35,441 nucleotides of DNA from a virus. Its lineage: Duplodnaviria > Heunggongvirae > Uroviricota > Caudoviricetes. The position numbers and the translations under genes are program-made. The stretch lies in the IMG/VR virus record IMGVR_UViG_2529293216_000013. One strand, 5' to 3'. The notes beneath the pieces were generated by a model. The model did not search any database. It was not told the DNA's origin and was given only the letters and a program-made list of their open reading frames with translations. Shown in pieces: positions 24,997 to 26,153 of this stretch; positions within the stretch are counted from its first letter, which is position 1; each line of letters begins with the position of its first letter.

Positions 24997-25587
24997 TTGA
25001 AAGCGCAATTAATTTATCCTGAATATGATCAAGTCATTGTTTCAAGAGAACTTGAGAAAGTAGAGCAAGATATTGAATCATCGAAAGATATATTGAAAGG
25101 TATTGTTGATGCACTTGATGATAAGAAGCAATTATTAAAAGAGTTAAGTGATGAATTATATTCAATCAGTGACAGGGAAAAATACTTATCATTACTCATT
25201 GAAAGATTTAGTCTTCTTAAAGACCAATACTTTATAGATCTACAAAGAATAGATGTTGTATCACAGGCGAATTTCTATTTAAATAATTTTGCAGATATTT
25301 ATTGTGAGTTCTGTAATACACCGCAAAAAAAAGAAAATGAAATATCATATGATGATTGTTTTTTGTCGTGTAATGCAGAAAAATTGAAAATCAAAAGCCA
25401 GCTGAAAGGATTAATTGAATCAATCGGATCTAATGTTCGCGAACATGAATTAATTATGTTAAGAAAAAATGATGTTAATGAAATTTATCAATCAGAAAAA
25501 AGTGATTTTAAGACGTTAGAAGATAAAAATATAAAACAATACATTCATCTCTTGAATCACTTTATGAATATAAAGACAATCTTTTAA
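24997..25587 (+). CDS. Coiled-coil segment of the ATPase with CxxC hook-like motif (same frame as previous segment, no ATG)
   Basis: Heptad-rich sequence; YCEFCNTPQKK...C...C near the middle; frame continuous with 24334..24966 apart from one TAA. Confidence 0.45.
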   Translation: MKAQLIYPEYDQVIVSRELEKVEQDIESSKDILKGIVDALDDKKQLLKELSDELYSISDREKYLSLLIERFSLLKDQYFIDLQRIDVVSQANFYLNNFADIYCEFCNTPQKKENEISYDDCFLSCNAEKLKIKSQLKGLIESIGSNVREHELIMLRKNDVNEIYQSEKSDFKTLEDKNIKQYIHLLNHFMNIKTIF

Positions 25588-26153
25588 TGGATCACACAAA
25601 ACATAGCATTCTATCTTCATTACAAGATAAAGAAGATGATGTTGACGAACTTAAATACTCCGCCGAGGACTTTGACTCCTTAACAGTAGCTGATTTGTAT
25701 GATATAGAAATAGCGATGCAAGACTTTTTGAATGATATAAATTTTGAAAATTCTAAAGATAACAAAGTGCGATTTGACGAAGATACATATGACTTTAATA
25801 TCAATGGGAAACGCCGAGGAATGTTTGGTAAAGGTACCCGTGCAGTAATGCATGCTATATTTACCATTTGCTTTGCGGAATTTTTATCAAGAAAAGGGAA
25901 TCCATTCATTGGATTTGTTGTGCTTGATAGTCCATTAGTGACGCACTTTGATAAAGATAGAGGGGGTTCTCTATCGGATGTTAATAGCGTCAGTCTCAGT
26001 GATTCATTTTATCACGCATTAATCAAAAGGGACTATAATTTCCAGATTGTAATTCTTGAGAATAAAGGTCCGACGTTCCAAATAAAAATTAATGATGCAA
26101 ATAAAATCCATAACTTAAATAAGAATGGAAGCTCTGGTTTTTATCCTGTTTAA
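25587..26153 (+). CDS. C-terminal ATPase head segment (Walker B-like region)
   Basis: RRGMFGKGTRAVMHAIFTICFAEFLSRKGNPFIGFVVLDSPLVTHFD (hydrophobic strand plus D, then His); ATG overlaps upstream stop (TAATG) with no clear Shine-Dalgarno. Confidence 0.45.
   Translation: MDHTKHSILSSLQDKEDDVDELKYSAEDFDSLTVADLYDIEIAMQDFLNDINFENSKDNKVRFDEDTYDFNINGKRRGMFGKGTRAVMHAIFTICFAEFLSRKGNPFIGFVVLDSPLVTHFDKDRGGSLSDVNSVSLSDSFYHALIKRDYNFQIVILENKGPTFQIKINDANKIHNLNKNGSSGFYPV

Follow-up and report, generated by a model that had tools for sequence, protein, structure and literature searches.

The frame change within lmuB of the Lamassu locus of Escherichia coli O157:H7 prophage Sp2, very probably a one-base loss-of-function lesion in a pseudogene

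Results

The change of reading frame at positions 25527-25590 of the DNA analysed, a stretch of 35,441 nucleotides (referred to below as the window), is very probably a loss-of-function lesion in the lmuB pseudogene of the Lamassu locus of prophage Sp2. The evidence consists of the colinearity of the gene fragments with intact homologs, a single-base gap in the alignment, the fixation of this gap in E. coli and the presence of additional lesions in the locus. The window copy of the system is best interpreted as a pseudogene operon with three lesions, lmuC alone being intact, and with no mechanism at work.

Identity and genomic setting of the locus

The window was 100% identical to the corresponding DNA of the E. 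coli O157:H7 strains EDL933 and Sakai, and the region showed the same identity in many further O157:H7 genomes. It was matched at 99% identity or more by 310 records, which came from 309 of the 5426 complete genomes of E. coli. In Sakai, the locus is located within prophage Sp2, where the annotation reads "P4-like phage". Positions 22877-26153 contain a three-gene locus in the order lmuA, lmuC (MC2), lmuB, which the Pfam and PADLOC matches identify as Lamassu (ABC-3C). The features of the locus and its borders are as follows.

21692-22873, + strand: P4-type tyrosine integrase of Sp2, left border of the cargo hotspot (RefSeq annotations of EDL933 and Sakai, transferred to window coordinates; open reading frame)
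22877-23883, + strand: lmuA pseudogene, effector with a weakly Mrr-like N-terminal domain and CTD6, in open reading frames of 138 aa and 205 aa (Pfam, PADLOC)
23284-23290, + strand: A7 run with one base missing from lmuA, the only gap in the DNA alignment of lmuA with Proteus and Pantoea
23883-24341, + strand: lmuC, ABC-3C middle component 2, intact 152-aa open reading frame (Pfam MC2, 5.4e-30; length equal to that of intact systems)
24334-26153, + strand: lmuB pseudogene, SMC/Rad50-like ABC ATPase, 1820 nt, in open reading frames of 210, 196 and 188 aa (PADLOC LmuB profile)
24964-24966, + strand: in-frame TAA produced by T to A at 24965 in the codon of the nearly invariant Leu211 (TTA) (alignment to homologs)
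25525-25529, + strand: A5 run in which 1 nt has been deleted; the 1821-column lmuB alignment has no other gap
25527-25586, + strand: stretch of the -1 frame upstream of the ATG, with homologous LmuB residues KYKTIHSSLESLYEYKDNLL (translation, aligned to KYKKIHLLLESLYEYKDNLL of homolog P0001)
25585-25589, + strand: TAATG, an out-of-frame stop overlapping an internal Met codon (ancestral in-frame TTA ATG, Leu-Met)
26563-28141, - strand: delta/ogr, psu and sid of the P4 core, bordering the cargo hotspot on the right (RefSeq annotation)

Concerning the individual components, Pfam located the CTD6 of ABC-3C systems in 23266-23883 (7.7e-30), while Mrr_cat matched the N-terminal domain of lmuA below threshold (E = 0.2), and the lmuA effector is accordingly named here a putative nuclease. 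AAA_23/SMC_N was found in 24334-24966. The downstream piece of lmuB (25587-26153) bears a Walker-B-like GFVVLDSP, and its match to DUF3732 was sub-threshold (23.2 bits for a cut-off of 25). The three lmuB fragments fell in order on one 610-position PADLOC LmuB profile (3-199, 231-412 and 428-608). With intact orthologs, the PADLOC matches were 2e-87 for LmuA (335-aa Proteus ortholog), 3.3e-35 for LmuC and 3.4e-117 for LmuB. NCBIfam gave nothing useful for any fragment. A PDB sequence search with the LmuB profile and the LmuA ortholog returned zero matches at E ≤ 0.01, so the window subtype is distant from the Lamassu proteins of solved structure.

The window locus has the same three components as Lamassu (LmuA-LmuB-LmuC; also known as ABC-3C, and as DdmABC in Vibrio cholerae): LmuB as an SMC/Rad50-like ABC ATPase with a coiled-coil insertion, LmuC as the small MC2 component and LmuA as an effector with a CTD6 adaptor. 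Unlike a working Lamassu, however, this copy is dead, as lmuA is frameshifted and lmuB carries a nonsense codon plus a frameshift. An intact open reading frame for LmuC, the middle component, adjoins lmuB. In contrast, the window gene does not encode LmuB as one polypeptide with Walker A head, coiled coil and Walker B head, and LmuA does not occur as one protein with its C-terminal adaptor, the CTD6 being present in a split gene. Judged from the sequence, lmuB is thus a pseudogene of Lamassu origin rather than a functional member of the family.

Two characters of the LmuB family were observed in the homolog alignment (A1) and in the middle segment. After the Walker-B Asp, an invariant Ser-Pro (LDSP) takes the place of the usual catalytic Glu, and the coiled-coil segment contains three invariant cysteines (C324, C327 and C346), reminiscent of a Rad50-type zinc hook.

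According to the model of Lamassu action, a dimer of LmuB together with LmuC sequesters monomeric LmuA (the V. cholerae complex has been solved); when DNA ends or phage replication origins are sensed, LmuA is freed and forms an active nuclease tetramer, and the infection is aborted (PMC12663957). By analogy, sensing of DNA ends or of phage replication, followed by the release of LmuA as an active oligomeric nuclease, would be expected of the intact relatives of the window subtype.

With respect to the genomic setting, the GC content is 26-36% at the locus versus about 50% in the flanks, as expected for horizontally acquired cargo. The genes lmuA-lmuC-lmuB are placed between the P4 integrase and delta-psu-sid, i.e., in the defence hotspot of a P4-like satellite, so that the locus occupies the same variable region between int and delta/psu as other defence cargo of such satellites. 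The Pantoea operon has the same insertion point (P4 integrase ... delta-psu-sid). The P4 core of Sp2 consists of open reading frames, namely int, delta, psu, sid, alpA, an ash-like gene and a 777-aa primase (21692-22873 and 26563-32777). Downstream of the primase, near the right end of Sp2, there is a hypothetical 318-aa open reading frame, ECs_0304 (32910-33866, - strand), which could be further accessory cargo.

Comparison with intact relatives

The search for homologs was run with the conceptual translation joining the three lmuB pieces as the query. It yielded 26 full-length homologs of 594-612 aa, each of them a single protein. The closest ones, both of 606 aa, were those of Proteus mirabilis (87% amino acid identity) and Pantoea alhagi (75%), with nucleotide identities of lmuB of 88% and 76%, respectively. 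The protein alignment was colinear through both lmuB breaks, as the preliminary description of this DNA had proposed to check for the junction, and the repaired window gene coded for 606 aa, the length of P0001 and P0002. The intact operons of Proteus mirabilis (L003, L004) and of Pantoea P4-like satellites (L005-L007) were uninterrupted and coded for 335 + 152 + 606 aa. Compared to them, the window operon displays the same gene order and, after repair, the same lengths, but it is one base short in lmuA, one base short in lmuB, and has TAA instead of TTA at codon 211. In the two Proteus loci, the intact Lamassu operon is followed by a gene of 340 aa (10100-11122) that is absent from the loci of E. 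coli and Pantoea and has only a faint carboxylesterase-like Pfam match (E = 0.0017).

The junction between the coiled-coil segment and the Walker-B head

The frame-1 open reading frame 24997-25587 (196 aa) stops at the TAA in 25585-25587, and the ATG at 25587 opens a 188-aa open reading frame that runs to 26153 in the -1 frame. The latter is open from 25527, directly after a TAA at 25524-25526. This is the arrangement that had been reported in the preliminary description, and the accompanying remark that the junction lacks both an A7 tract and a good Shine-Dalgarno sequence was also correct: the longest A run in gataaaaatataaaacaat (25522-25540) is the A5 at 25525-25529, and no GGAG/AGGA-like Shine-Dalgarno was present in the 15 nt before ATG 25587 (aaagacaatctttta).

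Of the two explanations then offered, an indel in the A-rich stretch or a natural split of the ATPase, the first agrees with the alignment. The length of lmuB is 1820 nt in the window versus 1821 nt in four intact genes, and one A is missing from 25525-25529, where Proteus reads GGT AAA AAA TAT and the window GAT AAA AA- TAT. The addition of one A at 25525-25529, together with the change of A to T at 24965, produces an open frame of 606 codons. The junction had been tentatively called a third frameshift. It is indeed a frameshift, but the locus has only two, one each in lmuA and lmuB, and its third lesion is a nonsense substitution; the frameshift implied at the earlier break of the ATPase gene does not exist, as 24964-24966 is an in-frame TAA and the open reading frames 24334-24966 and 24997-25587 share the same frame.

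The other explanation was that the ATPase is naturally split into two polypeptides; in a fuller form of it, translation of the Walker-B head would begin at ATG 25587 through the coupling of termination and reinitiation at TAATG. Overlaps of the TAATG type are frequent between coupled genes of bacterial operons, and the one-base overlap of stop and start seen in translationally coupled genes (TAATG or ATGA) is likewise present in the window. Also in line with this explanation, the 188-aa open reading frame begins with ATG and holds the whole C-terminal head, and fixation of the arrangement extends to about 309 genomes. Nevertheless, homology to LmuB begins upstream of this ATG, as the 20 codons located 5′ of it in the -1 frame match the intact proteins, while the frame-1 tail NIKQYIHLLNHFMNIKTIF that ends at the stop codon gave no match to the homologs. 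At the junction, frame 1 of the window gives KTLEDK and its -1 frame gives KYKTIHSSLESLYEYKDNLLMDHTKH, versus KRLEGKKYKKIHLLLESLYEYKDNLLMDYTKH in Proteus. Moreover, the ancestral in-frame reading at TAATG is CTT TTA ATG GAT (Leu-Leu-Met-Asp); the intact Pantoea gene contains the identical CTTTTAATGGAT, read in frame, and the Proteus equivalent is CTATTGATGGAT. Since TTA-ATG is read in frame in the intact Pantoea gene, TAATG is a chance out-of-frame stop beside a Met codon and not a coupling signal. It differs from the overlaps of truly coupled genes also in that it marks a gene boundary in no diverged homolog. The two-gene arrangement, which had been considered as possible support for a genuine split if it were found in homologs, occurred only in near-identical (at least 99%) E. 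coli pseudogene copies. The absence of a Shine-Dalgarno sequence, the upstream TAA at codon 211 and the frameshifted lmuA of the same operon, and the further indels and deletion of other isolates (see below) point in the same direction. As to the fixation in 309 genomes, these represent one near-clonal lineage (at least 99% identity), so it reflects shared descent and not selection. The natural split, which we consider highly improbable, was therefore rejected, chiefly on the colinearity with single-ORF homologs and the homology upstream of the ATG.

Other lesions of the locus

The lmuA gene measures 1007 nt in the window versus 1008 nt when intact. The loss of 1 nt leads to a TAA at 23291-23293 and splits the 335-aa LmuA into pieces of 138 and 205 aa. 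At codon 211 of lmuB, the nonsense substitution converts T6A6 to T5A7. Additional lesions were found in other isolates, as follows.

24318-24962: deletion of about 645 nt, with lmuC fused to mid-lmuB (Logan contig L014)
24345: T7 to T6 (MB9-1)
near 25325: A8 to A7 (Rafaela_II, CEC01311)
25496-25501: A6 to A7, length restored with stops remaining in between (LSU61, ERL05-1306)
25496-25501: A6 to A5 (O55:H7 TB182A)
within the locus: IS1203 insertion (three strains, H1-H3)

These further indels, the deletion and the IS1203 insertions fit with continuing decay of the locus. Part of the extra homopolymer differences could be errors of (long-read) assembly, and the overall picture is independent of them.

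Fixation and relative age of the lesions

An 86-nt probe with the A6 run restored was searched against E. coli genomes. It matched 309 E. coli records, none of them at 99% identity or more; the best 11 of the 309 matches reached 98.8% identity, which corresponds to one gap. The matching records include the Sanger-finished genomes of Sakai and EDL933 and many independent assemblies, from which it follows that the deletion is real and fixed. The copies of LSU61 and ERL05-1306 reach 1821 nt only through a second, non-rescuing +1 change located 29 nt upstream. No intact copy was found in E. coli, where every match was at least 99% identical to the region and had the deletion. For this reason the ancestral state was taken from the 88%-identical Proteus gene, according to which the E. 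coli gene would once have carried A6.

The order of events was approached through two early-branching genomes, only one of them O55:H7: O55:H7 TB182A, which represents the progenitor lineage, and O157:H7 LSU61, an early-branching strain. Both share the deletions in the A5 run and in lmuA but keep TTA at codon 211, which indicates that the frameshifts came first and the nonsense change later. On this comparison of sequences, the frameshifts would predate the split between O55:H7 and O157:H7, and the nonsense codon would have arisen later within O157:H7.

Concerning selection, the dN/dS ratio of the repaired lmuB versus the intact homologs was 0.09-0.12, which indicates purifying selection. Within E. 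coli, 8 out of 10 substitutions were non-synonymous or nonsense, which is near the proportion expected under neutrality. The marks of a pseudogene that were found are, then, three lesions in the operon, relaxed constraint, extra lesions in relatives and the pseudogene flag in RefSeq.

Recoding and sequencing error

Full-length LmuB could, in principle, be produced at a low level by programmed -1 ribosomal frameshifting, or by transcriptional slippage, at the A run, and in a variant of this idea the run could switch a toxic abortive-infection system by phase variation or adjust its dosage. The shift needed is of the -1 type and the join lies necessarily at the A run. In addition, all three lesions of the locus, as well as the extra indels of other isolates, touch A or T homopolymers. 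However, slippage by E. coli RNA polymerase is efficient only with about 8-9 or more A/T, so the A5 run is too short for it, and the sequence T AAA AAT of the junction (GAT AAA AAT) does not conform to the slippery heptamer X XXY YYZ. The intact homologs are in frame without any shift, and in typical O157:H7 the upstream in-frame TAA blocks translation before the ribosome could arrive at the site. With regard to a switch, A6 occurred in 0 of 309 matching records, with no ON/OFF variation at the run 25525-25529; the +1 change of LSU61 and ERL05-1306 at 25496-25501 restores the total length, but stops remain between both sites. The lack of a heptamer, the A5 run, the upstream nonsense codon and the absence of A6 records led to the rejection of programmed frameshifting and slippage, to which we give very little credit.

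That the true genome has A6 and an intact gene, the window being in error, has virtually no chance of being correct: some sequencing technologies frequently misjudge the length of homopolymers and a few assemblies do differ at other homopolymers, but 309 of 309 matching records, including those of Sanger-finished Sakai and EDL933, are one base short, as is the O55:H7 genome examined, and this agreement led us to reject it.

Discussion

The results are explained by the following sequence of events. The ancestor produced LmuB as one 606-aa protein. The loss of one A, from A6 to A5 at 25525-25529, then shifted the reading frame by -1, such that the old frame runs into the chance TAA at 25585-25587, which overlaps an internal Met codon and thereby mimics a coupled TAATG junction. 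This deletion probably took place before O55:H7 and O157:H7 separated. Later, within O157:H7, a T to A change would have turned Leu211 into TAA. The lmuA gene has a 1-nt deletion of its own. Under this explanation a recoding mechanism is unnecessary. We infer that the system is non-functional, makes no useful protein and is drifting neutrally. None of the sequence data obtained goes against the interpretation of lmuB as a pseudogene.

There is a slim chance, in our opinion, that the homopolymer lesions are reversible contingency switches that silence a toxic Lamassu, or that surviving pieces of the system are kept for a new role. As switches, the candidates could be the A run of lmuA, the T5A7 junction of codon 211 and, around 25496-25529, the runs A5 and A6. 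As pieces with a new role, they could be the intact LmuC and the fragments of the LmuB head in O55:H7/O157:H7, serving, for instance, to regulate the P4-like satellite or as a decoy. Given that lmuC has stayed intact and that the lineage in which the lesions became fixed is a successful one, some fragment may have a residual role.

In the RefSeq annotation of Sakai, the gene already figures as one pseudogene, ECs_0293 (24334-26153 of the window), "AAA family ATPase", and in this sense it is an ordinary pseudogene. In EDL933, PGAP presents the same interval as three separate CDSs. What is added by this study is the exact nature of the lesions, the identity of the locus as a decayed Lamassu, the explanation of TAATG and the order of the events. 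In consequence, the three CDSs annotated by PGAP as "hypothetical protein" or "AAA family ATPase" in most O157:H7 genomes are to be taken as fragments of one dead lmuB, and the upstream open reading frames of 138 aa and 205 aa as fragments of one dead lmuA. Sp2 of O157:H7 should not be counted as a working Lamassu in catalogues of defence systems. The relevance of these results is mostly limited to correct annotation.

Concerning P4-like satellites, a survey of P4 hotspots published in 2026 indicates that recognisable defence pseudogenes are rare in them (<1%) and that the systems are swapped before they decay (PMC13586616). Sp2 departs from this pattern: its cargo has degenerated on the spot, and its P4 core still consists of open reading frames. 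It is a clear case of the in-place decay of a defence system inside a P4-like satellite, a situation that is rare according to that survey.
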